From IMG/VR virus record IMGVR_UViG_3300042391_001116, positions 1,309 to 65,308 of that record: 64,000 nucleotides of DNA; one strand, 5' to 3'. This document shows, in pieces, positions 1,052 through 59,079 of the stretch (the stretch's first letter is position 1; every line of letters starts with the position of its first letter). The translations under genes were made by a program, and so were the position numbers. The stretch is from a virus. Lineage: Duplodnaviria > Caudoviricetes. The notes under the pieces are model-generated. The model saw nothing but the letters and a program-made list of their open reading frames with translations. It was not told where the DNA came from and did no database searches.

Positions 1052-1807
1052 CTATTTTTCAATAGAAAATGCAATAGGTATTTTAGAATCCTTTGATTCT
1101 TTTTCTAAAACATCCAGAGGGTATCCATGATTTTTAGTGAATTCAACTCTGTAGTTAAACCAGCCAATGATGCCATTCCAGAATTTATCATCGGTTGAGT
1201 CTCTTAACTCCATTAGTTCTTCATCTGTAAGCAAAAAGCTAAGGACACCTAAAGGCATATATACTGTCAGGTTGTAATTCTGATCTTTATCAGAAGCATA
1301 CTGCTTTAATAAACTCTGGTAGTCTTCAACAATTCTTTTTACTGCTGGACCACCGTAATGATCAAGAGACCCATTTTCGTTTCTAATTCTTGGGCAATAG
1401 TCATCAACGTTAGTTATTGTACCAAACGATCTACAAACCAATGGTCTAAACCCATAGATGGTACAACCACCTTTATAGAAAGCACAATGTCTTTTAGTTT
1501 CACCACCAGGCTTATAAGTCTCATCATGCATCGCATCTTTTAACGCATCTATGACAGACATAATCCACTTATCTGCTTCATCTTCGCCAGAGTTTTCCAT
1601 TTTTAAATAATATTCTTGACGAATATGAAAGGCAATACTGGCGCATTCCATCATTGGAATTGTTAAGCCAATCTTGCAGCAACCACCAGAGCCAAGACAT
1701 TTGGATTCAGTAGCATTCTGCTTTGCTTCTAGAACCCTGATTTGATTATAGATCATATCTAGGTGAGCAAAAGTTGTAATGTCTTTAATACTAACATTTC
1801 TTCTCAT
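1052..1807 (-). CDS. YkgJ/FliB-like cysteine-cluster (Fe-S/Zn) protein
   Basis: CLGSGGCC and CAFYKGGCTIYGFRPLVCRSF motifs typical of the CxxCxxCC family. Confidence 0.8.
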   Translation of the reverse strand: MRRNVSIKDITTFAHLDMIYNQIRVLEAKQNATESKCLGSGGCCKIGLTIPMMECASIAFHIRQEYYLKMENSGEDEADKWIMSVIDALKDAMHDETYKPGGETKRHCAFYKGGCTIYGFRPLVCRSFGTITNVDDYCPRIRNENGSLDHYGGPAVKRIVEDYQSLLKQYASDKDQNYNLTVYMPLGVLSFLLTDEELMELRDSTDDKFWNGIIGWFNYRVEFTKNHGYPLDVLEKESKDSKIPIAFSIEK

Positions 1808-2460
1808 CGTAATTTACCTTTGTCTTCATCTACTTTTTTAATCTCATATTCGTATCGGTCATCGTCAGAAGTAACCCACTTGTGAGCATTTTCTACATCC
1901 CATAACTTTGTATTTATAAAACGCTCAATAAGAGTGCCAGTTTTAGTCGTAAACGATGGGTCAAATAAACGCACTCTGTTATTTGGCTGTATAGCAAAAT
2001 TACCATCATCTCTTTCAATCACATGACCACACTTATGTTGACCCGGATTTACTGAAAAACCGCCATTGATTACATTATCATCAGGTGAGTGCCAATCAAG
2101 TGTAAACAAATATTTACCATTAACAAACTCTCCAGTACGGGCAACATAAGTCATACGCATATTTCGCATAGCCTGAAATTCAGTAACAGAAACATGGTGA
2201 GAAAAAGAATTCCAAAGAACAAGATCGTGAATATCAATTTCTGGCGAATCTTCTTTAGAACAAAAAGCGGAAATTGGCATACGCCACCACACTCCACCAT
2301 CTTCCATAAGAAAATGAAATAGCGGACTTCTTCCCTGTATTGAAGTTACTCCAAATATCATACATGGGAACTTAAGATCATGGCTGTCACGCTGGTCGCG
2401 TAAATAGTTACCACGAACATAACACTCAATAGGGGGAATATTGGCATTTAGTTCAGGCAT
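1804..2460 (-). CDS. conserved phage hypothetical protein
   Basis: 218-aa ORF with ATGA coupling; MPELNANIPPIECYVR N-terminus resembles a family common in aquatic phages. Confidence 0.75.
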   Translation of the reverse strand: MPELNANIPPIECYVRGNYLRDQRDSHDLKFPCMIFGVTSIQGRSPLFHFLMEDGGVWWRMPISAFCSKEDSPEIDIHDLVLWNSFSHHVSVTEFQAMRNMRMTYVARTGEFVNGKYLFTLDWHSPDDNVINGGFSVNPGQHKCGHVIERDDGNFAIQPNNRVRLFDPSFTTKTGTLIERFINTKLWDVENAHKWVTSDDDRYEYEIKKVDEDKGKLR

Positions 2461-2505
2461 TGCTCACACCTTTCTCAAGAGCAACCATCGTTATCATATT
2501 TTTTT

Positions 2506-2802
2506 TCATCGTAATTTACCTTTCTTTTTTAAAGCATTTGCTTTCTGCATTTCTCTTCTCTTTCTTTCAACTAACTCTTGCATCGGAGACTTAGGTCGAC
2601 GATTAGACGTATTTTTAAGATTACGGCCTTTACCCCGGTACTTAAGTAAGTCATATTTCTTAACCCAGTTATATAATGCTTGAGGACTTAATTCAACATT
2701 ATAATTTTTCTGTAACAACTTACAAATATCTGTAAGGTTCATTCGTCTTTTAACATACATTTCGTATAAGAATTCTTTATCTTTATAAGGTTCTAAAGCC
2801 AT
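2506..2802 (-). CDS. helix-turn-helix DNA-binding protein
   Basis: Start moved to MALEPYKDKEFLYEMY; HTH-like NLTDICKLL...SPQALYNWVKKY and basic tail. Confidence 0.65.
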   Translation of the reverse strand: MALEPYKDKEFLYEMYVKRRMNLTDICKLLQKNYNVELSPQALYNWVKKYDLLKYRGKGRNLKNTSNRRPKSPMQELVERKRREMQKANALKKKGKLR

Positions 2803-3373
2803 TAGATACTCCATACCACAAGCCAATGCCAATAGCATCAGTAATATCACTATCTACAACAGTTGTATCAAAGTCTGGAAACACATTATTCAATATTGTT
2901 CTGACGCGCTGTTTTCTTTCATCAGATAATCTTTTTTGTATTCCTTTTTCACCGTACTTATCCTTCAAGTCTTTAGTGTCTTTCTTTGTAAGGTTTTTAT
3001 AGCCGATACCTGACTTCCATTTTAAAGGATTAACGTCTTGAACTATCTTACAGTAGTCATCCAACTCACCCCATGTAAAACCAATTATATAAGACAAAAT
3101 ACGGCTTGCTTGAAAGTTTTGTATAAAAATAGATTGCTCAATAACTGCTACATCAGGCTTATACTTGTCACAAATCAAAGGCATTTCTTTTTTAATTTTA
3201 GAAAATTTGTTAGAAATCTCAGGGATAAGAGAGTAATCAATCTTACCACAATCAACTATCTTAATTCCATTCTTATCCATATCAAGAACAGCCCAGGCTA
3301 AAGAGTGAGATGCTGGATCTAGCGATATTACGCGACACGCTTTCATGGTGGAGAGCATTGAGGAAACAGTCAT
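2783..3373 (-). CDS. ruvC: RuvC-like Holliday junction resolvase
   Basis: SLDPASHSLAWAV, VIEQSIFIQN and DITDAIGIG acidic catalytic motifs. Confidence 0.8.
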   Translation of the reverse strand: MTVSSMLSTMKACRVISLDPASHSLAWAVLDMDKNGIKIVDCGKIDYSLIPEISNKFSKIKKEMPLICDKYKPDVAVIEQSIFIQNFQASRILSYIIGFTWGELDDYCKIVQDVNPLKWKSGIGYKNLTKKDTKDLKDKYGEKGIQKRLSDERKQRVRTILNNVFPDFDTTVVDSDITDAIGIGLWYGVSNGFRTL

Positions 3374-3702
3374 AACATCTCTTTCCTAATTTTTTCTTCA
3401 TCCCATCCCCATGAAACAAGTCTTGCAATGTATCTTTCAGTCTTACACCTTTCGCATATTTTTTCTTTGTTATATCTTGACAAGATTGTTGAGCAATCTT
3501 CAGTAATGCAAATTCTTTTCTTAGTTTTATTTGATTTATCAGTATAATACTTTTCAAGTAGTTTCCTGTTGGTAACTACTTTTCTACACTCTGATGAACA
3601 ATAAATGCCGTTGTAAGTCTTGGGGACAAAACTTACAAGGCATTCATCATTAGCACAAAAAATCTCTTTAAAAAGGTTCGTGCTCTTCTTTCTTGCTTCC
3701 AT
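3370..3702 (-). CDS. Zn-ribbon/treble-clef hypothetical protein
   Basis: CANDEC, CSSEC, CITEDC and CERC Cys pairs; start placed at MEARKK. Confidence 0.65.
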   Translation of the reverse strand: MEARKKSTNLFKEIFCANDECLVSFVPKTYNGIYCSSECRKVVTNRKLLEKYYTDKSNKTKKRICITEDCSTILSRYNKEKICERCKTERYIARLVSWGWDEEKIRKEML

Positions 3703-4435
3703 TCGTACCTGACCAGCATTGAGAATACAGATCGCATGAACCACAATTTTTAGATGTCATTTTGTATGGTTGATCAGGGATCGTATTCTCTGTGAAGTTT
3801 TTATAAAACTTCCTGTATTTCGTAAATAATTTGTCAATAAAAGCATCATCTCTATCAATTAAAATTGGTAGAATTTGTTGATTATTTTTATTTTCATAAA
3901 TAACAAAAGCTTGTGGTAGATCTAAGCAGCGCATATAGATTTGTGCTTGCCTAACATGATCATCTTTTGGCTTCTTATAAATTCTCCTATATTCAAAACC
4001 TTCCATTGAGATTGACTTTATCTCAATAAGCTTTCGCCCGTAGAAGTCAATTATACCATCAGCAGTGCCTTCAATGGGCGGATCATCATAAGTTACTGGA
4101 ATTTCCTCTCCAACAAGAATACCCATATGATTCAAGTAACTATAAATACGTTCGTGAACCTTATGTCCATTATCAAAGATACGATAAGTCTGAGGATTAA
4201 ATGAAGTCTCAACTTCTACACCATTAAACAAGTAATACCAATATCTTGCACATTGGTTTGTATAACTAGGATGGAACCCGCCAACTTTCTTTATCTTCTT
4301 TTCATTTCTTTCAAGAAATGAGGCATCAATTTTTTCAGTTAATTCCTGTTCAAGATCAGCAGATGTTTTTTCAACACTTTCTTCTCTAGGAATTGATTCC
4401 TCTTTTGGCGCTTTTAAGGCCTTAAGTGCTTTCAT
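3668..4435 (-). CDS. Cas4-like/RecB-family PD-(D/E)xK exonuclease
   Basis: GTADGII...IEIKS, QAQIY, N-terminal C(ARY) plus C-terminal CGSCDLYSQC Fe-S ligands. Confidence 0.85.
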   Translation of the reverse strand: MKALKALKAPKEESIPREESVEKTSADLEQELTEKIDASFLERNEKKIKKVGGFHPSYTNQCARYWYYLFNGVEVETSFNPQTYRIFDNGHKVHERIYSYLNHMGILVGEEIPVTYDDPPIEGTADGIIDFYGRKLIEIKSISMEGFEYRRIYKKPKDDHVRQAQIYMRCLDLPQAFVIYENKNNQQILPILIDRDDAFIDKLFTKYRKFYKNFTENTIPDQPYKMTSKNCGSCDLYSQCWSGTNGSKKEEHEPF

Positions 4436-4752
4436 TAGTTATTTCCTTTTCCAATTATTTTAAGCACGTTGATGTTTTCAACCAATGCCTCATACATAGT
4501 CTTCCAAATATCGTTGACAAACTTATCTTGTTCGCCCATAATACTTGACTTACGCTTATAAACTTGAGATTTAACAATCATCATGGTTCTATACCCAGCA
4601 AGAACATTGGCATACTTCAAAGCCTGTGCTCCAACATAGAAATCTGGGTTTTCAATAATGTCTTGAACAATTCTCATAGACTCTAAGAACTCTTCAGCTT
4701 TATCACCCATCTGTTCAGCTAACCAGTCTGGGTTCACAATTATATCTGCCAT
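4435..4752 (-). CDS. hypothetical helical protein
   Basis: 105-aa ORF with SD (AGGAG), coupled to the nuclease gene. Confidence 0.7.
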   Translation of the reverse strand: MADIIVNPDWLAEQMGDKAEEFLESMRIVQDIIENPDFYVGAQALKYANVLAGYRTMMIVKSQVYKRKSSIMGEQDKFVNDIWKTMYEALVENINVLKIIGKGNN

Positions 4753-4800
4753 AACACTCCTTTATATATCCTCGTAGTTAGAAACAATATGATATCACGA

Positions 4801-6240
4801 TTAGTAACAATATTTCTTTAATTCATTAGCAATCCACTCAACAACTGGTGCAGCAACAGCATTACCAATCATTTTATAACGATTAGTATTGCTAATCTCT
4901 TTACCATTATCGGCAAATCTTGTATGGTCATCAGGGAATCCCATCAATCGCTCACATTCAATAGGTGTAAGCCTTCTTAGGATCAATTCTGGTGTGCATA
5001 CAGCATGCATTGACACAGTGTCTAATGTGTATGAGGGGTCATTTGGTTCACCAAACCCTTTTCCTGCTGGTCCAGCGGAGTCTGAGCGACCAATGATCGT
5101 GCCCTGAATGGGGATAGCAGTATGTTCTTCAGCAATCAATGGAACTTGATTACCACCAGTTCCCATTCTGCTCATAAGAGTAGGCACAATACCATCATCA
5201 TAAACACGAACATCATTAACCCTTGTACCATCAACAATTAGAACAGTTGAACGCGATTCACTATTGTTATCAAAAGCGTTCAAAGTTGGGCTAACGTCTT
5301 CTTGTCGCCAAACTTCTGGCGGTAAGTTACCGTCAGCATCCCTAGCACCAGAGCGAATAACTTTGACAAAAGATTCAATAGTGTGCATAACAAAGTTTTC
5401 GTCAGGTCGCTTATGGCTAGTAGCCCTGAATGTTGAACCGCCTTCTTGATAATTACCAAAACCAGTTTTGCCATAAAGAACAGGTTGTGCTACAGAATTA
5501 CCACCACTTTCAACACGCATTGTTGGGAATACTTCTTCAGATACTTGTGGATCTATTCCGTTTTTGTGATTGAATCCGTATGTTGGTCCGCTAACTTGAT
5601 CAGAGCCTGATAGAGCATGGGTGGAAGTTTGTTTCCTCTTCTTTCGGCTCTTCTTAAGATTCCCGTCGCTGTCTTCGGGGACAGGTAATATTTGTGTTCC
5701 ACATCTGCTAACGATTGTAGGACAGAAACTAGCAATAAGGAACAATCTTCTCCTTCTGTGTGGGACTCCAAACCATTGTGCATCCAAGATGTGCCATTCA
5801 ATTGCCAATGCCCCGATGTTTGCCATTTCGTCAATGACTGCTGAGAAGTCTTCTCCTTTATTACTTGTGAGGGCACCTGGTACGTTTTCCCAGATTGCGA
5901 TTTTTGGGTATTCATTTCCTGTTGCATTTCTCATCTCCTTGATGATTCTAGTCGCTTCGTAAAACATTGATGATCTATCACCATCAAGACCAGCGCGCTT
6001 CCCAGCAACTGACAAGTCCTGACATGGTGAACCAAAGGTAATCAAATTGACGGGCTTAATTTTTGCACCATCAACATCTTGAACATTAAAATATTTATCA
6101 GTATCAGGCCAATGCTTGTTTAAAACAGATTGACACGTTTTGTCCCACTCAACCTGCCAAACACTTTCCCAGCCAGCATTTTGAAAACCAAGATCAAAAC
6201 CTCCGACCCCAGCAAACAAACTTCCAAATGTTAATTCCAT
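4801..6240 (-). CDS. dcm: DNA (cytosine-5) methyltransferase with long variable region
   Basis: Motif I SLFAGVGGFD, IV GSPCQDLS, VI WENVPG, VIII HRRRRLF, IX RRLTPIECERLMGFP, X YKMIGNAV. Confidence 0.93.
   Translation of the reverse strand: MELTFGSLFAGVGGFDLGFQNAGWESVWQVEWDKTCQSVLNKHWPDTDKYFNVQDVDGAKIKPVNLITFGSPCQDLSVAGKRAGLDGDRSSMFYEATRIIKEMRNATGNEYPKIAIWENVPGALTSNKGEDFSAVIDEMANIGALAIEWHILDAQWFGVPHRRRRLFLIASFCPTIVSRCGTQILPVPEDSDGNLKKSRKKRKQTSTHALSGSDQVSGPTYGFNHKNGIDPQVSEEVFPTMRVESGGNSVAQPVLYGKTGFGNYQEGGSTFRATSHKRPDENFVMHTIESFVKVIRSGARDADGNLPPEVWRQEDVSPTLNAFDNNSESRSTVLIVDGTRVNDVRVYDDGIVPTLMSRMGTGGNQVPLIAEEHTAIPIQGTIIGRSDSAGPAGKGFGEPNDPSYTLDTVSMHAVCTPELILRRLTPIECERLMGFPDDHTRFADNGKEISNTNRYKMIGNAVAAPVVEWIANELKKYCY
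5553..5927 (-). CDS. nested alternative-frame ORF, M.EcoHK31I beta-subunit-like N-terminal region
   Basis: KTSQQSLTKWQTSG...WMHNGLE...CSLLLVSVL...YYLSPKTATGILRRAERRGNKLPPMLYQAL matches the beta polypeptide pattern as I recall it; starts near motif VI as in EcoHK31I. Confidence 0.68.
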   Translation of the reverse strand: MQQEMNTQKSQSGKTYQVPSQVIKEKTSQQSLTKWQTSGHWQLNGTSWMHNGLESHTEGEDCSLLLVSVLQSLADVEHKYYLSPKTATGILRRAERRGNKLPPMLYQALIKLADQHTDSITKTE

Positions 6241-7096: not shown

Positions 7097-8353
7097 TCAC
7101 TTACCTATATTTGAAGATAGCAAAAATTTATTTTCTAGATCCCAGATGGCTTGGTCTGTCGGCTTCTGGAAAATAGGTTGAGAAAGTAATGATCTATACA
7201 TTTCTTCTGGAACACGGTGAATTGGGTCATCCTTTGTAAACTGTATTCCATTATGTAGTAAATAACTTCCATTCCCCGTATACATTAAATAGAAGCTGCT
7301 TTTATGATCTAATTCTTTAAAAGATTTAATACCAACTCTTTTTACTAAATTGTTTAACATATAGTCAACTCTAGTTTGCCAATTATATTCTTCATAAATC
7401 AACGGTGCTTGTTTATAATAAAAATCGCATTGAGATGAAAAATCATTATAGGCATTTAACATTAAATTCATTAAAGATTCAAAATCTGCTAAAACAACTT
7501 CACCTTCAAAATAACCAGAATACGATGTTGGACCAATAGTAGAATCAATAATATTATTTTTAAAGTATTTATCGTAAGAACACCATCTACTTGTAGAAAT
7601 AACTGGCATACCAGTAGCAAGAGCCTGAAGAGGAATAAATCCAAATCCCTCACCCTCAGACGGATAGACAAGAACATCATGTTCATTGAATAACTGGATC
7701 ATTTCATCTCCAGATAAAGTTTTAAATATTTTATTAATGTTAGAAAATAAAGATGAAACACCATTATCACCATAGTACTGGTCGGTATGATACTTTAAAG
7801 TTAACTCAACATCATTATTATTACCAAAAAGAGTGATAAAAGCTTTTTCAACAAGATCAGCCCTTTTCCTAGGAGAACCAGAATCAACATGAAGAAACCT
7901 AATCTTACTTCCTTGACCTCTTTTAAATGGCTTCCATTTATCATCAATTCCATGTTCAAATACAAAAGTTGGTGTTTTAACTCCAGAGTTACCAACAGCA
8001 TCTGCTGCAAATTGGTTACCTACCCATATTTCATCAACCTCGTTCATTGAATCAATCCAATGAGACCACACCCTCGTTGTTTCTAAGTGAGTTCCATAAA
8101 TTTTGTATTGATGATCATAAAATTTATTAAAACTTGGATCACGAAAACTAGTCATAGTTTTTAAGTTATACCATTCTGGCTCCATATAAAACATTTGTAT
8201 TTGTGATGATGGAGAATTCTGCATCACTTTTAGCTTATTTTTTTTATATTGGAAGTTATTAAAATGCTCACAAATTTTGTAATAGCCATAAGAATATCCA
8301 TAAATGCCATTAGCATCTTTAATATGCTGGTCTGTATGCATTGAAAAAATCAT
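7097..8353 (-). CDS. GT4-like glycosyltransferase with extra C-terminal domain
   Basis: DEIWVGNQF, FLHVDSGSPRKR, VYPSEGEGFGFIPLQALATGMPVI. Confidence 0.88.
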   Translation of the reverse strand: MIFSMHTDQHIKDANGIYGYSYGYYKICEHFNNFQYKKNKLKVMQNSPSSQIQMFYMEPEWYNLKTMTSFRDPSFNKFYDHQYKIYGTHLETTRVWSHWIDSMNEVDEIWVGNQFAADAVGNSGVKTPTFVFEHGIDDKWKPFKRGQGSKIRFLHVDSGSPRKRADLVEKAFITLFGNNNDVELTLKYHTDQYYGDNGVSSLFSNINKIFKTLSGDEMIQLFNEHDVLVYPSEGEGFGFIPLQALATGMPVISTSRWCSYDKYFKNNIIDSTIGPTSYSGYFEGEVVLADFESLMNLMLNAYNDFSSQCDFYYKQAPLIYEEYNWQTRVDYMLNNLVKRVGIKSFKELDHKSSFYLMYTGNGSYLLHNGIQFTKDDPIHRVPEEMYRSLLSQPIFQKPTDQAIWDLENKFLLSSNIGK

Positions 8354-36725: not shown

Positions 36726-36920
36726 CTATTCACAGACAAAAATTCTTTTGCCTCGTTTGTCTCGCCATTTGGCAATCTTTTGGGCATGTTCGGGTTTAAC
36801 AGAACCTGTTTTCCGACCAATACCTAAACCTTTGTTCCATTCAAACTCATATATTCTAGAATCAACTTTCGCTATGTAGCCAGAATTTTTCCCGATATAT
36901 GTGATTGTAACGTAGTCCAT
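36726..36920 (-). CDS. small hypothetical virion-associated protein
   Basis: Start MDYVTITYIGKNSGY, 6 nt after TGGTATGAT. Confidence 0.6.
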   Translation of the reverse strand: MDYVTITYIGKNSGYIAKVDSRIYEFEWNKGLGIGRKTGSVKPEHAQKIAKWRDKRGKRIFVCE

Positions 36921-36937
36921 TCCTATATCATACCATA

Positions 36938-37357
36938 TTATCTTTTCACATGATGAATAACAAATTCCAAAGTCATTTGGTACCATCCATCCCTTTCAGC
37001 AGGGGCTTCTAAAGATGTATCAGTAAGTTCTGTAGAAAGAATCCTACAATTTGTACCTGCTACACCATTAGACTGGGATATCTGATCGCCTTTACCAAGC
37101 AACTCAATAATTCTTTCCCCCAGATTCAATACCCTGTCCACATCTGTGTCGTAAATAGAATACAGGACAGAATCTCTCCGATACCAAAATGACTCAACAT
37201 CTGGTATAACTGGAGTATAGTAATAAACTATAAATGGCGGACTAGCATTCCCATAACCAATTGTTGGGAATATGTCAATTGTACTACCAGCAATAGAAGT
37301 AATAGTTGCATCATTCTTAATAAAAGAGTTAATATCGTAAACACTAATGACTGCCAT
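36938..37357 (-). CDS. tail terminator-like protein
   Basis: Synteny and size. Confidence 0.6.
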   Translation of the reverse strand: MAVISVYDINSFIKNDATITSIAGSTIDIFPTIGYGNASPPFIVYYYTPVIPDVESFWYRRDSVLYSIYDTDVDRVLNLGERIIELLGKGDQISQSNGVAGTNCRILSTELTDTSLEAPAERDGWYQMTLEFVIHHVKR

Positions 37358-47947: not shown

Positions 47948-48399
47948 AGTAGATACCTCACAATAACTACGCCTGAACCGCCTGCGCCACCACCTGTTAC
48001 ACTCGTAATGTTTTGTCCACCGCCACCGCCACCAGTGTTTACTGTTCCAGCAATAGCGTCAGGGTTAGTGGAACCATTATAGTATCCACCGTTTCCTCCA
48101 CCAGTAGTACCACCAGTACCACCTGTACTGTATATAGGACTGCCTCCATCAGCGACTTGTCCGCCACCGCCACCTATGATGCCATACCCATCAAATTGGT
48201 CACTATTTCCACCAGCACCTGAACCTCCACCGCCTACAACAAGAATGTCCATACTCTTGCTACCAGTAACAACAAAGTTGCCCGAAGCATTAAAAGTATG
48301 GTAACGATAACCACCACTATCCGTAGTAGTACCACCAGTAGCAGAGAAAGCAACGGCACCTTTCATGCTCCCAATTAAGCCAGCAAGTGCACAAGTCAT
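47944..48399 (-). CDS. glycine-rich domain structural protein
   Basis: YRYHTF...LVVGGGGSG...GGAGGSGVVIVRY. Confidence 0.7.
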   Translation of the reverse strand: MTCALAGLIGSMKGAVAFSATGGTTTDSGGYRYHTFNASGNFVVTGSKSMDILVVGGGGSGAGGNSDQFDGYGIIGGGGGQVADGGSPIYSTGGTGGTTGGGNGGYYNGSTNPDAIAGTVNTGGGGGGQNITSVTGGGAGGSGVVIVRYLL

Positions 48400-49406
48400 T
48401 AGGTCAAGCCGTTCCCGCTAATAATCCATGTTGTTGAAGCAATCTTAACAGCAGTAGCCATACCAAATGGGGCAAGAGTTCTAGAACCTGTTGTTCCAGG
48501 ACCAGCAAGATACATAGTGTCAGATGTAATCGCAATAGTTACTGTTGCACCCGAACCAGCAACAAAAACAATAGTTGTACCAATAGGCATAGCAACATTA
48601 GAATTAGCAGGAATAGTTGCTGTACGAGTTGCAGTAGAATAAATGTGTTTTCCAGCATCAGAAGCAACAACTGCTATATTACTAGTCAAACTAGCATTTT
48701 GAGGCAGACCCATATAACCGACACCACTAGCAGCAGTTGTGGTTGTTCCATCAAGGGGGCTTCCAGTGAAATTTGTAGCAGTAACAGTTCCATTTACATC
48801 TAATGCTGTTCCGGGATCGTATTTGCCAATACCCACACGATGGTTAGTAGCATCAACTTTTAATGTTGTGGAACTTATCCCAGCCCCATCAACTCTTAGG
48901 TCTCCTTCTAATACAAGACCAGTTGAGGTGTCATATTGTAGGTTTACACTGCCTGCGGGATTGTTTGAACTATCTTTGTAAACGACCTGATACGCATCAC
49001 CAGCAACAGGACCTGTTGCGCCTGTAGGACCTGTTTTACCTGCTAGGTGGACACTAAAAGATGGGTCAAAGTCTGGTGTCCCAACAGTTACATCAGGGGT
49101 AACAGTCATGTAGTAAGAACCAGAAAATAAAGAAATAGCGTAACAAGTACCAAGTATGTAATTACTTGAATCCTCTTCCACCCGTACATAATCGCCAGAC
49201 GCAAATGCTCCAACACTACTGGTTTGGAAACTCCAATCACCAGATTCAGGGTCTTGTCCTGCGGTTCCTGGTGTGCCAATAACATAACCAAGACCTTGTG
49301 GTCCAGTATCGCCATTTGCGCCAGGTGCCCCATTCATACCAGGAAGGCCTTCTGGGCCTTGTGGACCTTCTGGACCTAAGAGGTTGGAAGTAAGATATTT
49401 AATCAT
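48399..49406 (-). CDS. collagen-like fibre protein
   Basis: (Gly-X-Y)n: GPEGPQGPEGLPGMNGAPGANGDTGPQG and GKTGPTGATGP. Confidence 0.75.
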   Translation of the reverse strand: MIKYLTSNLLGPEGPQGPEGLPGMNGAPGANGDTGPQGLGYVIGTPGTAGQDPESGDWSFQTSSVGAFASGDYVRVEEDSSNYILGTCYAISLFSGSYYMTVTPDVTVGTPDFDPSFSVHLAGKTGPTGATGPVAGDAYQVVYKDSSNNPAGSVNLQYDTSTGLVLEGDLRVDGAGISSTTLKVDATNHRVGIGKYDPGTALDVNGTVTATNFTGSPLDGTTTTAASGVGYMGLPQNASLTSNIAVVASDAGKHIYSTATRTATIPANSNVAMPIGTTIVFVAGSGATVTIAITSDTMYLAGPGTTGSRTLAPFGMATAVKIASTTWIISGNGLT

Positions 49407-50088: not shown

Positions 50089-50472
50089 TTAGTCGAGGCT
50101 GATCACCAAAGCGCCAGACGCAATTCTAATTGAGTCACCAGCCAAAACAGTACGGTTAGTTGTTAGAGTACCGTGGTACAGCATATTACCCGATGTAGAA
50201 GCGTCAAGAACAGCTACAGAAACAACAGTCACCGCTGGCATCGTATTGAAATCAACATTAGTGTCATTACTTGTTGAACCAGAAGATGCAGCACTAAACG
50301 TGATAGCTTGACGCGCATAAGAACCACCAGTGACTTCTGTTCCAGCCGAAGAATCAGAAGGGGCTACAGTATAAAGTGCAGCATAAACAGTTGTTGGCTT
50401 AGTAAACGTTGTAGTACCAAGCGAATGGTCAATTAACTTATTTTCCAAATAATTAGATGCGGAACCCGCCAT
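50089..50472 (-). CDS. phage structural protein
   Basis: SNYLENKLIDH...TEVTGGSYARQ family pattern. Confidence 0.65.
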   Translation of the reverse strand: MAGSASNYLENKLIDHSLGTTTFTKPTTVYAALYTVAPSDSSAGTEVTGGSYARQAITFSAASSGSTSNDTNVDFNTMPAVTVVSVAVLDASTSGNMLYHGTLTTNRTVLAGDSIRIASGALVISLD

Positions 50473-50474
50473 TA

Positions 50475-50810
50475 TTAACTCTCCTTAGCAAGTTCTTCAA
50501 GTTCCAACTGATCAGGAAGTCTAAAATTATCTAGTGTTAAAAGATGATCTGCTTCCTCAACTGGAATCTGATGAATTCTTTGCTCTTGTGAAAACTGATA
50601 TCCACTAGGTGTTGCATAACCATAGCCAGAAGAAAAGTAAATAAACTTATATCCGGGCTGTGCTACTGCAATATCAAAATCTCTATCGTTTTTTTCTTTT
50701 GTAATCTTAGGAGCAGCAGCTTTTTTAGGAGCAGCAGCTTTCTTTACAACTGATTTTTCATCAGTTGACTTAGCGTTTGTGTCTGTTGATTTAATAACAT
50801 TATCAGTCAT
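50475..50810 (-). CDS. small protein downstream of the capsid gene (capsid-associated candidate)
   Basis: KKAAAP repeat (18-nt DNA repeat at 50707/50725) plus a domain homologous to the GT C-terminus at ~7130-7295. Confidence 0.65.
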   Translation of the reverse strand: MTDNVIKSTDTNAKSTDEKSVVKKAAAPKKAAAPKITKEKNDRDFDIAVAQPGYKFIYFSSGYGYATPSGYQFSQEQRIHQIPVEEADHLLTLDNFRLPDQLELEELAKES

Positions 50811-50852
50811 AGTATAAAATTGTACCACATATTCTATTCAATACAAAGCAAA

Positions 50853-50917: not shown

Positions 50918-51949
50918 TTAGAGAGTACGAAGCTTGACATTCTTTGCGATTACATACGAGTCAGCATTCTCAATATTGGATGCAACTCTCATGTACTGTG
51001 TGTACTCAATGGTGTCAGTCTTTGGCTTGAACTGACGGTACACGGTGATGTCGCGGTGGATACCGATAACACGGTTGTTCGGGAACGTGAGTTCCAAATA
51101 GCCGTGTGAACCAGCAGCACCAGAGTAGTCACCAGTAACAGCTTCAGGCATCAAAGGAACTTCAACCAACGGAATACCGAATGGAGCAAGACCAGTAGCA
51201 CCAGGACCACCATTTGCACGCATTGAGCCTTGCAGGAATGCCATATCACCAACGAGTGAACCAGGTGATGGAGCGCCAGCAGTAGCAAGAGTAGCCGAGT
51301 TGGGGTTACCCAAACTATAGATTGAGTCCTGAACAACGCCTGAACCAGAGAAGAACTTTAGTTCATTACGACGCTGCAAGTACTTGCTTGGCAGGTTACG
51401 AAGAACACGGTCATATGTTGAACGTGAAACGTTGTTCCCAGCCTCATCAACTACGCGACCAGAAGTTGTAGCCAACTTCACAAAGCCATTAAGAGCCTTG
51501 AGAAGAGAGTTGCTAGAAGAGGTGTTACCATTGATGAACAAATCATCCATGTCATTAGCAGTTTGACGTGCCATGATCTGAGCGATATGATCTTCCAATG
51601 ATGGTCCTTCAATGTTATCTTCCAAAGACTCAGTGCTGAGCGCCCAGTCAAGACGAAGCTTGACGGTGCTCAAAGAGACCTTGGTGAATGTGACAGCAGC
51701 ATTTGCAGCTGTGTCGGTTGCCTCAGTTGCCTTTGCAAGCAAACGAGTGCCAACGGAAGTCTTATCAATTTCCATTTGCGGGGTACGCATGCGAACCACT
51801 CTTGAGTTCTGCATGAGCACTGATTGATCAATCACGAAGTCAATAAAACGATTTGACTGCGCTGGCTTCATCAAACCACCACTATCGTTATTAACCACGC
51901 TAGTAGTGACTTCATCTGCCTTACTTAAAATTTCTTGTTGAGTTGCCAT
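50918..51949 (-). CDS. major capsid protein (HK97 fold)
   Basis: GGLMKPAQSNRFIDFV, SLEDNIEG, position after protease/scaffold. Confidence 0.9.
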   Translation of the reverse strand: MATQQEILSKADEVTTSVVNNDSGGLMKPAQSNRFIDFVIDQSVLMQNSRVVRMRTPQMEIDKTSVGTRLLAKATEATDTAANAAVTFTKVSLSTVKLRLDWALSTESLEDNIEGPSLEDHIAQIMARQTANDMDDLFINGNTSSSNSLLKALNGFVKLATTSGRVVDEAGNNVSRSTYDRVLRNLPSKYLQRRNELKFFSGSGVVQDSIYSLGNPNSATLATAGAPSPGSLVGDMAFLQGSMRANGGPGATGLAPFGIPLVEVPLMPEAVTGDYSGAAGSHGYLELTFPNNRVIGIHRDITVYRQFKPKTDTIEYTQYMRVASNIENADSYVIAKNVKLRTL

Positions 51950-51966: not shown

Positions 51967-53718
51967 TTATGACTGATAACCAAGTGCGCTAATTAAGCCT
52001 TGGGGTAAATAAACGTTGTTCCAAACAGAAGTAGATACGGACTTAACAAGTTCCTCTTCATCAGCGTCATCTTCAGGGTCAACACTTTTCTTAATTGCAC
52101 CAGATGTTGCGATTGTATTGACCTTTTCTTCTTGGTCAGCCAAAGACTTCTCTGCTGCTTCTAACTTTCCTTGAATTTCAGTTGCCTGAACTTCAAAACT
52201 CTTTGCAATGCTGTCGATTTTTTCTTGAACAGTTGCTTCAACTTCTTCTTTAATTGAAGTAGCGAAGTTAGCCAGTTTCTCGTCAACCACAGCACTAAGA
52301 GCATCCTTAAGGATTTCAATATCCATTTCTTCCTCCAATGTGTTCTCAGTTACTTCAACTTTAGATTCTGTTGAAGTTGTTTCTTTTACATCTTGAACAA
52401 CCCAGTTAACAAACCTTTTCAAAAGAGAAAGTTTATTGTAGTCTTGTTCTTCCATGTTTAAGATCGTATCATATTGTACATCATTTTGCAAGATATCTGC
52501 TTGCATTTTAGTAATATTTGTATCTTCTTCATCTACAAATTCTTTGATGTCATCAATAGGGGCTGAACTATCAAGCATATCAGCTAATGCTGTAACAATA
52601 TCTTTTACTTCATTCCAATCTTCTTCTACTTCATCAATTACATCTAATTGACTGTCAGAACTCTTATTCATAGTGGTCTCCTTTTTCTTACTAGGCCTCT
52701 TTTTCTTTTTAGGCTTAACTTTTGCAGAAGGATCGCCATAGCCCTGTTGAGGATTCTTAAGACCAGAATTCATATTAGTTGTTGCAACTTCACCTTCTTT
52801 AACAAGTTTATCAGGAATACTGCAACCACATGAGCAATTGTCTTTTTCAATATCAAAATCTTCATCATATTTTTTTGTACAGTTATTTAAAGTTTCAACT
52901 TTAGATCTAGCCCAAGCCCATCCAGCGTCACCGCCCCAGAGATTCCAAGCAATACGGCCATTAGAAGGGTAGCCATCTTCACCAGGACTCCATCCTTTAC
53001 CTTGCTTGTCCACTTCATGACGGGGAAAGTAACTTGCAACTTTTCTAACAAACTGTTCACTAGCATTACCGCCAGCAGAAAGTCTTCTTGCAGAACCAAG
53101 CCCAACGCTCGTTCCACCACGACCAAATTCTCTACGTTGTGATAATCCAATTGCAGCAATCTTCTTTACACTATCTGGGATAGAAAGATCTATGTCACCA
53201 CAATCTACTTTTAAAACATAATCATAATTGCCATCAGAATCCATTTTAACAATATCAATAACTGCAACTTGATTAGCAGGATTATCAACTAAACTAAGTT
53301 CACCAAGTTCATAATCTTTAATTACGTTAACTGGCTTTCCTCTAAAAATTTTTTTAGTGTCCATCTCTTTTTGGATAATCTTTCCACCAATTGAAAAAGC
53401 ACGAAGTGTCCCATCAAGAACTTTTTCCCAAGTATCTTGAGCACCTTTAGAAATATATGCTTCTACACGAATAGCATTATAAGACTCACCATCAGCGCCT
53501 TTAACAATAACTGGCTCATACTTAATAGCTTTACCTACAGCAATAGGAGAATGCATCTCTCTAATGTTGCCAGACCAGTTTTTAAATGCAACAAGTGATG
53601 CATTAAAGTCAATAATATCTCCAGCTTTATCAATATTATCTGCTGTAGCAATTCCCACTACAATACGTTCTTCTCTCTTGATAAAATCAATTGGGAACGA
53701 TATATTAAAATTTTCCAT
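51967..53718 (-). CDS. prohead protease fused to scaffold, with inserted domain
   Basis: IREMH, RAFSIGG, ELSLVDNPAN; acidic coiled-coil C-terminus. Confidence 0.88.
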   Translation of the reverse strand: MENFNISFPIDFIKREERIVVGIATADNIDKAGDIIDFNASLVAFKNWSGNIREMHSPIAVGKAIKYEPVIVKGADGESYNAIRVEAYISKGAQDTWEKVLDGTLRAFSIGGKIIQKEMDTKKIFRGKPVNVIKDYELGELSLVDNPANQVAVIDIVKMDSDGNYDYVLKVDCGDIDLSIPDSVKKIAAIGLSQRREFGRGGTSVGLGSARRLSAGGNASEQFVRKVASYFPRHEVDKQGKGWSPGEDGYPSNGRIAWNLWGGDAGWAWARSKVETLNNCTKKYDEDFDIEKDNCSCGCSIPDKLVKEGEVATTNMNSGLKNPQQGYGDPSAKVKPKKKKRPSKKKETTMNKSSDSQLDVIDEVEEDWNEVKDIVTALADMLDSSAPIDDIKEFVDEEDTNITKMQADILQNDVQYDTILNMEEQDYNKLSLLKRFVNWVVQDVKETTSTESKVEVTENTLEEEMDIEILKDALSAVVDEKLANFATSIKEEVEATVQEKIDSIAKSFEVQATEIQGKLEAAEKSLADQEEKVNTIATSGAIKKSVDPEDDADEEELVKSVSTSVWNNVYLPQGLISALGYQS

Positions 53719-54033: not shown

Positions 54034-55650
54034 TTAGGCACTAGTATTTGTGCCATTATCTTGATTCTGACCGCGCTCTGCTTGGTCACCATTCTGTCGA
54101 GGATCCACAGCGCCATCGGCTGTATCTGCTGATGCTCTTCTGGGGAAAGCCGACTGATTGTTTGAATTCATAGGGGGCGCACCCGCCCCTTCTTTTTTAA
54201 TTTTAGTGGGGAAAGGAAGAACCTCATCACCATCTGATCTTTCTGGATATCCAAGATGACCTCTGACCTCATTAGGTGTAATAATTTCAGTTCTCAAATA
54301 CCTATCATAAATTCTAGACTGCATCTCGTCATCAACAAGATCAATCCTCTTAAACTTCAAAGTTAAAAGATCAGTAAACTCAGCAATAATCTTATTAATC
54401 TTCTTTTCAATAACAGCTTGATCTGGACCAATAACCTGAGTCTTAAATGTCTTATCAGCATCTCTAGACACAGCAAGGTTTGCGTTATCATAAACGCCAA
54501 CCTTTGGCGCTGGAACTCTATTGGCAACTAGGATTTCATCTCTGTTTGATTTTCTGAATTTATCAAATGACGCATCTTGAATTCCCGCCTCAAGCTTCTC
54601 AAATTTGATATCAGCATCAGAACCGATAGAAGAAGGAATAGGGATAACAAGAGTACCATGATTTCTGCCTTTGACTTCATTTCTAAAATAGTTAACTAAT
54701 TCTTGTTTTGATTTTGCACTAAGCTTTGCACCCTTTAAGATAATTGCATATCTAGGAATTGCTTTATTTTCAAAGTAATCAATATTATATTCTTTTGCGT
54801 ATTTATCACCAACGATAGCTGCAGCAGCAGAAACGGCTGGCGGAATACCGTAATAAGAGTTGTTCGGTGAATAAATTTTAAAATGAATTAACTCGTTTGG
54901 GTTAGCATCTAAATTAAGTGGATCTTCTGTTTCAAGATCTTGGAAATTTCTAAAATAGACAGCACTAATCTTATTGCTCTTAGCAATTTGAACGTACCCA
55001 TCTCTTTTTCTTCTAACTCTTACAAGAGTTGCTGGAACATGACCGATATAGCCAACTGAGCCATCAACATTTCTACCAATTTCAAGATACCCGTTTCCAA
55101 CAGTCATGACATCAAGCCATACTCTAACCATTGTTTCTAAAAACGTTTCTTCATCATTTAAATTTTCAAAAATATCATCAAGACGTTCTTTTTCATCTTG
55201 AAGACCTTTTCTAACTCTAGAAAGCTTTTCAACATCACCTTGAGTCTTTTCAATTCTTCGCCTTGCTTTTGTGGTCTCAACAAATTCGTATCCAAGACCA
55301 ACAGTGTTCATTGCTCTAGCATTAATAGCCGAGTTATGAATAGCACTTTGATCATAAAGACCAGCAAGTGTATCTAGGTCATATGGGGGAGTAACAACAT
55401 CATAAAGAGAGTATCCATCCAGCATTTCTGGGTCAACATACTTAGCACCAGTCTCACCCATTCCAGTAAGTCTTTTTTGTAGGTTATAAAACTTTCTTTT
55501 CATCTTAGGTGAAAGTTGAGAAGTTTTAACCTGAGTAAATGGATCATTGTTTTCCATTTTTGATAGAACTTGAACATATGAAAGTTCGTCTATTTCAACG
55601 CCATCTTCTGGATCATCTATATGCATTGTTGTTCCCATCTTATACTCCAA
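54034..55650 (-). CDS. portal protein
   Basis: GNGYLEIGRN, YYGIPPAV, YFENKAIP, ITPNEVRGHLGY. Confidence 0.92.
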   Translation of the reverse strand: MEYKMGTTMHIDDPEDGVEIDELSYVQVLSKMENNDPFTQVKTSQLSPKMKRKFYNLQKRLTGMGETGAKYVDPEMLDGYSLYDVVTPPYDLDTLAGLYDQSAIHNSAINARAMNTVGLGYEFVETTKARRRIEKTQGDVEKLSRVRKGLQDEKERLDDIFENLNDEETFLETMVRVWLDVMTVGNGYLEIGRNVDGSVGYIGHVPATLVRVRRKRDGYVQIAKSNKISAVYFRNFQDLETEDPLNLDANPNELIHFKIYSPNNSYYGIPPAVSAAAAIVGDKYAKEYNIDYFENKAIPRYAIILKGAKLSAKSKQELVNYFRNEVKGRNHGTLVIPIPSSIGSDADIKFEKLEAGIQDASFDKFRKSNRDEILVANRVPAPKVGVYDNANLAVSRDADKTFKTQVIGPDQAVIEKKINKIIAEFTDLLTLKFKRIDLVDDEMQSRIYDRYLRTEIITPNEVRGHLGYPERSDGDEVLPFPTKIKKEGAGAPPMNSNNQSAFPRRASADTADGAVDPRQNGDQAERGQNQDNGTNTSA

Positions 55651-58068: not shown

Positions 58069-59079
58069 TTAAAAGTTTTTTTCAAATTCCGTCAAACGGG
58101 AGAGCATCTTATCAGCGACATTTGACCAAGACATCTCACCGTGAATTATTTTTGCTGAACGCAACGTATATTTTTTAAAATCGTCATATTCACTCACAAC
58201 ATGTTCCATCAAATCAAGTAGTTCATCGTAATTAGGCACAGCCCATTCCCCGACATCACAGGCGTACAAGTGATCATGGAAGTCAGACTTACCCCAGGTT
58301 GCTGGGAGCGGGATGGACATTTTAGCAAAATCTGCACACCCTGTTAAGTTTGTGCAGATTGTAGGAAGTCCTGTAGCAATAGCTTCAAAAGGAATCATCC
58401 CAAAACCTTCACCACTTGTTGGGTAAACCATGCAATGGCACTTGTGATATAAACGCACAAGTTGATCAACAGAAAAGTTATCTGGAATACCAATAATTTG
58501 AGGATGATTATGGGCTGGCACAATATGACCATCAAGATAAACATCTGCAAAACAAAACTTATTGTATTTAAGAATTAGTTGAAAGTCATCGTTGCCTTCA
58601 TACAACTCTAAAAAAGCATCAACAACAAGTTGAGCGTTCTTTCTTTTAGAATCTCCACCTACATGAAGGAAGTTAAATTTACCTGTAAGTTCTCTTTCAT
58701 ATATTTCAAAGTCATCAGATATGCCGTGAGGAATAACATGAACGTTGGGATGAATATTGTTTTTAATATAGATATCTTTAACAAATTCTGATGTAGCCCA
58801 TATTTCAGAGCATCGCGACATATTATGTTTCCAACTATCTGGAACAATTGTAGACTCCCAAGGAGTATAACCAATATTATAGTTATTATGTATCTGATAA
58901 TAAATTGGCGGACAGAAATTAATATGAAAAGGTATTTCTTCTCTATTATAGAAAACACCAACACCCTTCTCTTGTAAAGCAAGGATGGAACTAACGGCAG
59001 CATTTTGGTAGCCTTGGCTAAACCAATTTTCTCCGCTTAAGTCTGTGTTGTTGAGGCTAAACCAGCTAACTTTCTTCAT
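58069..59079 (-). CDS. GT4-like glycosyltransferase
   Basis: GYTPWEST, EIWATS, FLHVGGDSKRKN, YPTSGEGFGMIPFEAIATGLP. Confidence 0.88.
   Translation of the reverse strand: MKKVSWFSLNNTDLSGENWFSQGYQNAAVSSILALQEKGVGVFYNREEIPFHINFCPPIYYQIHNNYNIGYTPWESTIVPDSWKHNMSRCSEIWATSEFVKDIYIKNNIHPNVHVIPHGISDDFEIYERELTGKFNFLHVGGDSKRKNAQLVVDAFLELYEGNDDFQLILKYNKFCFADVYLDGHIVPAHNHPQIIGIPDNFSVDQLVRLYHKCHCMVYPTSGEGFGMIPFEAIATGLPTICTNLTGCADFAKMSIPLPATWGKSDFHDHLYACDVGEWAVPNYDELLDLMEHVVSEYDDFKKYTLRSAKIIHGEMSWSNVADKMLSRLTEFEKNF

Follow-up and report, generated by a model that had tools for sequence, protein, structure and literature searches.

Few systems are known in which virions are glycosylated by phage-encoded enzymes. 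Glycosyltransferases (GTs) of the mycobacteriophages Che8 and Rita are reported to glycosylate the capsid (PMC11256854, citing Freeman et al. 2023), and in the chloroviruses glycans are put on the capsid proteins by virus-encoded GTs (PMC9614988). The enzyme considered here is a GT with an extra C-terminal domain, found in a window of 64,000 nt from a tailed phage (Caudoviricetes; IMG/VR record IMGVR_UViG_3300042391_001116); the window makes up most of a 65.3 kb viral contig, which is ~63% complete. The GTs of this phage are likewise virus-encoded, and may glycosylate its virion. The extra domain, referred to below as the tail, has a homologue in a small protein encoded directly after the major capsid protein (MCP) gene, and to our knowledge none of the GTs of Che8, Rita or the chloroviruses has been described as having a domain derived from a head-module protein.

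Two described proteins share the gene position of this small protein. In lambda, the MCP gene, E, is followed directly by Fi, whose product gpFI uses the major head protein to link terminase-DNA with the prohead (PMC13595911, PMC7889075, PMC4493119); in the PBSX-family phages, YqbF is encoded directly downstream of the MCP (PMC11526630). The genomic position of the tailed GT, on the other hand, recalls the T4 alpha- and beta-GTs and the MT-5mYOX-GT clusters, in which a phage GT-B enzyme is likewise found near DNA metabolism genes and a cytosine methyltransferase. Acceptor hydroxyls on DNA are known to be supplied by TET/5mYOX and ThyA-like hydroxymethylases (bioRxiv 10.1101/2023.12.21.572611).

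Homology of the tail to the post-capsid protein

The tailed GT is 418 amino acids (aa) long and is encoded on the minus strand at 7097-8353; the tail itself corresponds to residues 353-415 (7109-7297, minus strand). An earlier note, made from the sequence of the window, had proposed that these last ~60 residues are homologous to the protein encoded after the MCP, and sequence comparisons confirm this, with very high confidence, for the C-terminal domain (50478-50657, minus strand) of the 111 aa post-MCP protein. A single BLASTP comparison aligned GT residues 355-406 with residues 62-113 of the open reading frame (ORF) at 50475-50828, and the gapless match to 50475-50810 that had been claimed stood over 52 residues, with 25% identity and an E value of 2e-4. 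Were this pair the only evidence, a chance or compositional likeness between two short segments would have something in its favour, but that explanation is refuted by the relatives of the two proteins, and the probability left to it is close to nil. The small protein of the window matches the tail of the orthologous GT of a related phage with 50% identity over 56 aa (E = 2e-13), and a profile of the tails only, compared with a profile of the small-protein domains only, gives a match of 99.5% across 62 columns (E = 1.1e-22). The two sets of sequences align without gaps across the whole domain, and share an FRxP(T/D)..E motif near its end.

A profile built from 36 homologues of the small protein gave the same picture. 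An unbiased six-frame scan of the whole 65.3 kb record returned exactly two matches, one being the small protein itself and the other the tail of the GT (E = 5.7e-6), whilst a direct comparison of this profile with the tailed GT by hhalign gave a value of 77% (E = 2e-5). The tails of the orthologous GTs in related phages were matched with E values that ranged, record by record, from 1e-4 to 4e-17, and most of these are much closer to the small-protein family than is the tail in the window.

The predicted structures agree with these alignments. The tail is predicted to consist of three short strands, a helix, a short strand pair and a terminal helix. AlphaFold2 models of the two proteins were built from independent alignments; that of the small protein has a strand at residues 60-65, two short strand pairs, a strand at 85-89, a helix at 90-97, a further short pair and a helix at 107-116, and that of the GT has strands at 353-358 and 378-382 and helices at 383-390 and 400-415. 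The order of these elements is identical in the two, with an offset of 293 residues, and in both models the domain has a predicted local distance difference test (pLDDT) score of 80-89. The tail is predicted to fold in the same way as the C-terminal domain of the small protein. Profile-profile alignment and structure prediction were among the computational checks that the earlier note had put forward, and neither a non-significant alignment nor a difference in predicted fold was seen.

The remainder of the enzyme is a GT4-type glycosyltransferase of the GT-B fold. It matches the Pfam family Glycos_transf_1 (PF00534) over residues 148-268, with a score of 37.1 bits against a cut-off of 26.4, and phrog_2170 across residues 41-338 (E = 8e-45). 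The mean pLDDT of the model is 84, and the two Rossmann domains of the GT-B architecture are present. A Foldseek search of the PDB produced 482 matches at E <= 1e-3, those listed being GT-B glycosyltransferases, mostly of family GT4; the best was the GT4 of chlorovirus NY-2A (3oy2; E = 1e-11).

Two other GT4 paralogues are encoded in the window, both on the minus strand. That at 58069-59079, identified through Pfam and PHROG matches, is 336 aa long, keeps the E-x7-E motif and gives no match to the tail profile, in agreement with the earlier statement that it lacks the tail. The other, at 2-940 (Glycos_transf_1, E = 1e-13), is cut by the edge of the window, and likewise produced no tail match in the scan of the record. 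A weaker third copy of the domain had also been suspected at 36726-36986. This candidate was rejected, there being no match to it in the same scan at E <= 10; the BLASTP alignment contains gaps and has an E value of 0.07, and the hhalign values are 6% and 2%.

History of the tail and a second fusion

Orthologues of the tailed GT are found on more than 70 IMG/VR contigs, and nearly all have the tail. It is present, in frame, in ~60 orthologues whose cores are 55-97% identical, and these retain the core residues of the domain family and the FRxP(T)..E motif. A tree built from 93 sequences of the domain has the GT tails on one side of a single branch (SH-aLRT, an approximate likelihood-ratio test, 96) and the post-MCP domains on the other, which is consistent with one old acquisition in the clade to which the window belongs. 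The tails lie on longer branches than do the post-MCP domains, and in this clade they comprise the folded domain only, the linker and N-terminal part of the small protein being absent.

A further fusion was detected on a 5.7 kb JGI contig (L199). Its 424 aa product, P0158, is a GT4 joined in frame to an entire small protein of a more distant family, described below, the Met of which is kept with a GGAG eight bases upstream; the C-terminal part matches phrog_9487 (E = 8.5e-10). The domain of P0158 is sister to that of a free-standing small protein, P0122 (74% identity, SH-aLRT 97), and its GT part is nearer to the paralogue at 58069-59079, the closest in the window (33% identity, E = 9e-50), than to the tailed GT (30% identity, E = 3e-34). 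On these sequence relationships, therefore, the P0158 fusion is independent of that in the window clade. The genes of the contig encode, in order, an MCP (phrog_1623, E = 8e-94), a GT-A-like galactosyltransferase, a polysaccharide pyruvyl transferase (PF04230) and the P0158 fusion. The MCP and the post-MCP protein are thus separated by a three-gene glycan cassette, at 1664-5568. The GT part of the fusion has a Q at the position of the second E of E-x7-E. No relatives of this fusion were found in IMG/VR, or among the 233-742 aa proteins of a set of 5.8 billion clusters.

The description of the tail as a captured module, made in the earlier note, is upheld by these results: it is a bona fide homologue of the post-MCP domain with the same predicted fold, is shared by ~60 orthologues, is set apart from the post-MCP domains by a single branch of the tree and has a counterpart in an independent second fusion. 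As far as the searched literature shows, it is new for glycosyltransferases to have captured a head-module domain, which apparently happened twice.

The post-capsid protein and its neighbourhood

The small protein occupies 50475-50810 on the minus strand, with its start at the ATG at 50810 (MTDNVIKS...), an assignment made in the earlier note with which the alignment of the family agrees. It is composed of a conserved N-terminal motif, MTDNVIKSTD, a disordered linker rich in Lys, Ala and Pro, and the folded C-terminal domain; in the AlphaFold2 model, residues 1-55 are disordered and the domain has a pLDDT of ~84. There are 53 homologues, of between 101 and 164 aa. In the 36 that were aligned the N terminus has the motif MSDNVIKSTDV, the linker is rich in Lys, Ala and Pro and differs in length, and the ~58 aa at the C terminus form a well-conserved domain. 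The signature of this domain is G..Y.T..G..F(T/S)....(I/P).....E...L(L/I)....FR.(P/A)...E, which the GT tail fits.

Searching 1.84 billion representative proteins with a profile of the domain alone produced only 109 matches, which, a few aside, have one of two architectures: either the domain forms the C terminus of a small protein of ~60-185 aa, or it is fused to a GT4 enzyme. The exceptions are repetitive proteins with many short partial matches, and are probably spurious. The weaker hits constitute a distant family of small proteins, with the consensus ...SGVxFTxxHPFQLVxxxEAxxLLxxxRFRxAxxxEVKxYY, which corresponds to phrog_9487 (function unknown); its profile aligns with that of the GT tails at 99.2% (E = 9e-20). 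The N-terminal halves of the distant family vary; many start with an M(T/A)ITSxDV-like sequence, resembling the start of the close family, and some, such as P0124 (E = 3e-5), have an N-terminal SAP domain.

Comparisons of the small protein itself with Pfam, PHROGs and the sequences of the PDB gave only low-complexity or chance matches, such as HC2, MBD and keratin. A Foldseek search of the PDB found nothing below E 0.1, the matches being only of the GINS B-domain-like type, and the ESM Atlas contained no informative cluster. BFVD yielded a single clear relative, uncharacterised and encoded by an uncultured Caudovirales phage, the remaining matches being weak.

The gene for the small protein has a stable position. 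In 87 of the 91 loci of the close family the MCP is immediately upstream, and in 89 a Gp80-like gene is immediately downstream; the distant members on contigs L200, L203 and L205 likewise follow the MCP, and the MCP that precedes the gene, wherever the context is readable, is of the phrog_1623 type. The tailed GT shares the domain only and is not a member of this gene family, lying not downstream of the MCP but ~43 kb away from it. Contig L205 has two Gp80 copies after the neighbourhood of the small protein.

Cultured phages also have this arrangement. In Streptomyces phage TunaTartare, gp27 (L207:4084-4470), which has a SAP-like N terminus, follows the MCP gp26 and belongs to the family (hhalign 98.5%, E = 2e-15). 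All 127 Streptomyces phage records with a homologue of the MCP, which are of the BE cluster, were found to have the small protein as well, annotated in all the rows listed as 'hypothetical protein' or 'unknown function'. These members were found among the phage records only with the profile of the distant family, as tblastn searches of 50,697 phage records with the small protein and with the GT tail produced no match. The same phages have GT4s of the same PHROG, and in at least one (phage Cross), as in the window, a GT4 adjoins the ribonucleotide reductase. The gene order GT4, ribonucleotide reductase, portal, protease, MCP, small protein is common to the Streptomyces BE-cluster phages and the window.

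Most genes of the window are on the minus strand between 1 and ~59,100, and a plus-strand block begins at ~59,500. In order of transcription, the head module consists of the GT4 paralogue at 58069-59079, which forms its upstream edge, the ribonucleotide reductase, the portal (54034-55650), a prohead protease (51967-53718), the MCP, the small protein and the Gp80-like gene; small fibre-related proteins and a collagen-like fibre (48399-49406) lie further downstream. The MCP (50918-51949, minus strand) is HK97-like (Pfam Phage_capsid, 29.1 bits; phrog_1623, E = 5e-82) and is 49% identical to those of the Streptomyces BE-cluster phages. The protease domain of the prohead protease covers only residues 3-162 of 583 aa; the long remainder, towards the C terminus, may represent a fused scaffold. 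Directly 3' of the small protein, the Gp80-like gene (50089-50472, minus strand) encodes a fibre or head-associated protein (Pfam PF23140 Gp80, E = 3e-41; phrog_240, head protein); the name of the PF23140 family derives from fibre I of podophage GP4.

Elsewhere in the window, a 2-oxoglutarate-Fe(II) oxygenase (PF13640; 42201-42944) is encoded within the fibre cluster, the fibre at 48399-49406 has collagen repeats, and a CxxCxxCC protein of the YkgJ/FliB type (1052-1807) adjoins the GT4 cut by the window edge. Together with the three GT4s, these look like a toolkit for the modification of virion proteins; the oxygenase, the collagen-like fibre and the FliB/YkgJ-like protein fit protein rather than DNA modification.

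Proposed capsid docking and its alternatives

The interpretation we favour, which the earlier note also put forward, although we would put it at somewhat short of an even chance, is that the tail steers the GT to assembling capsids, where the enzyme would glycosylate the MCP or proteins attached to the capsid. A broader proposal, more tentative again, is that the post-MCP domain acts as a portable capsid-address tag, which phage GTs would have acquired independently at least twice and which would bring the enzyme to capsids as they assemble. The case for docking is built on the synteny with the MCP, the gpFI-like layout of the small protein, the glycan cassette between an MCP and a small protein in one relative, and the lack of a hydroxymethyl-pyrimidine route in the record and four complete relatives.

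On this reading the tail, a beta/alpha mini-domain of ~60 residues following the last helix of the GT-B fold, descends from the C-terminal domain of a small, adaptor-like protein encoded directly after the MCP. In the small protein, this constant domain would bind a constant neighbour, for which the MCP lattice of proheads or capsids is the simplest candidate, since the N-terminal parts vary and the gene is tied to one MCP family across divergent phages; the variable part, be it a short ITSxDV-like motif, a basic linker or a SAP domain, would contact a second partner. The C-terminal domain of lambda gpFI binds the major head protein in this way. Attached to the GT, the shared domain would concentrate the enzyme on assembling capsids. 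In the GT-B topology the final helix runs back to the N-terminal half of the protein, which binds the acceptor, and because it is this helix, packed back on that half, which precedes the tail, the latter would emerge beside the acceptor site, a geometry suited to the recruitment of a substrate.

A number of observations weigh against capsid docking, the first of which concern its proposed analogues. Besides its gene position, lambda gpFI resembles the small protein in having a flexible N-terminal part and a small folded C-terminal domain, but there is no sequence likeness (hhalign comparisons with Fi gave 0.2% for the distant-family profile and 0.1% for the profile of the domain alone). The fold of the gpFI C-terminal domain (2LSM) is a weak match at rank 11 (VIA Z 3.8, root mean square deviation 4.9 A, 52 residues) in a list where Z scores below 8 are common, and no fusion of the gpFI domain to an enzyme was found in the searched literature. 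The best structural match was the N-terminal domain of YqbF, from the skin/PBSX-type prophage of B. subtilis (2HJQ, PF14553; Z 4.4, root mean square deviation 3.2 A, 48 residues, 19% identity), yet this score is within the noise range stated for the tool, and its first rank is tied with many others. As classified in Pfam and SCOP, YqbF combines a small beta/alpha domain with a module of the helix-extended-helix type, an order of domains that is reversed relative to the small protein. The Pfam model of YqbF matched neither the whole record nor the aligned members of the small-protein family at E <= 10. Because the fold scores are within the noise and there is no link at the level of sequence, gpFI and YqbF are treated as possible functional analogues only; they may indicate how the small protein works, rather than the family to which it belongs.

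The location of the tailed GT also tells against docking. It is found ~43 kb from the head genes, in a block of DNA metabolism genes encoding a DnaE-like polymerase, a UvsX-like recombinase, the tailed GT, a Pyr_excise glycosylase, a Holliday-junction resolvase, a C5-cytosine methyltransferase, a Cas4-like exonuclease and a RuvC-like protein. The GT therefore lies between the recombinase on one side and the glycosylase, resolvase and methyltransferase on the other, and because it adjoins such genes it may be expressed with those for replication. Given these neighbours, and the SAP or basic N-terminal parts of the small proteins, the main rival explanation is that of a DNA-directed enzyme: the shared domain would bind a component of DNA packaging or handling, such as the terminase, the portal or DNA itself, and the substrate of the GT, at the time of replication or packaging, would be DNA or a protein associated with it. 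The C5-cytosine methyltransferase is two genes from the GT, the SAP or SAP-like N termini of P0124 and TunaTartare gp27 are accompanied in the close family by a Lys/Ala-rich linker, and phage enzymes of both the GT-A and GT-B folds that glycosylate 5-hydroxymethylcytosine are known (bioRxiv 10.1101/2023.12.21.572611).

Nevertheless, we regard a DNA-directed role as unlikely. Neither a Tet_JBP (5mYOX/TET) match above the cut-off nor a ThyA-like hydroxymethylase (Thymidylat_synt) was found in the record, itself 63% complete, or in four complete relatives; since these genes were not found, there is no known route to an acceptor hydroxyl on DNA. In this, and in the GT4-type core of its enzyme, the phage differs from the pathways that glycosylate 5-hydroxymethylcytosine or 5-hydroxymethyluracil in DNA. 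The shared domain is acidic to neutral, with a net charge of -5.2 in the post-MCP proteins and -0.2 in the tails, and the parts that resemble DNA-binding sequences are in the N-terminal half, which the GTs of the window clade did not acquire. The P0158 fusion is in a head module beside a pyruvyl transferase, pointing to a glycan of the polysaccharide type, and the structures nearest to the core of the tailed GT, led by the chlorovirus enzyme, are GT4s that act on proteins, lipids or small molecules.

A further consideration is that the tail may pair with the post-MCP protein itself, like domain with like, so that the disordered, Ser/Thr/Lys-rich N-terminal half of the small protein is recruited as a substrate, or the GT simply rides along. 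Small homologous domains often self-associate, the long disordered half of the small protein has a conserved motif containing S/T, the small protein is encoded in each of the four complete genomes that have a tailed GT, and in P0158 the enzyme and the small protein form one chain. If tail and resident protein did pair, however, each might be expected to track the other; within genomes, no co-variation of the tail and the small-protein domain was found (seven genomes, permutation p 0.21, low power), a result that speaks against docking too. Furthermore, the tails resemble the close (99.5%) and distant (99.2%) families to about the same degree, rather than following the resident copy. Such pairing seems quite improbable.

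The tail is also not universal. The GT orthologues on contigs L149/L150 and L152 (each at 3001-4062; 62-63% identical) end right after the GT core, with no separate ORF for a tail found downstream. The existence of these natural tail-less orthologues means that the tail can be lost, and is dispensable in some lineages, which again counts against docking. They would fit a tail that is a neutral or merely stabilising leftover of an old read-through fusion, having no role in targeting, as would the longer branches of the tails in the tree; fusions of the P0158 type, formed by read-through, show how such proteins may originate by accident. However, the retention of the tail in frame across ~60 diverged orthologues, with the core residues and end motif of its family, is at odds with this, and the keeping of the folded domain in the window clade whilst the linker was lost indicates selection for that domain. 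A leftover of this kind appears decidedly doubtful.

Two last points against the docking of the enzyme relate to the fusions themselves. P0158 is a singleton on a 5.7 kb contig, and could be the product of a lost stop codon or an assembly error. The tailed GT has E235-x7-Q243 in place of the canonical E-x7-E of GT4 enzymes, and the variant is invariant in the GT of the window and all 23 aligned orthologues; whilst this is no proof of inactivity, the activity or donor use of the clade may be unusual.

How the enzymes that glycosylate virions find their substrate among the proteins of the host is not understood, and the modification matters both for the immune recognition of therapeutic phages and for stability in the environment. 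If the tail does dock the GT on capsids, a glycosyltransferase with a domain borrowed from a head-assembly adaptor would be a simple and testable answer, providing virion glycosylation with a built-in targeting mechanism. The analysis also defines an uncharacterised domain family, composed of phrog_9487 and an aquatic clade, which includes the gp27-type proteins of all 127 of the Streptomyces BE-cluster records searched; these cultured phages can be used to study the function of the domain. Should it prove to bind capsids, it would represent a compact tag for capsid display, or for docking foreign proteins on capsids of this type.

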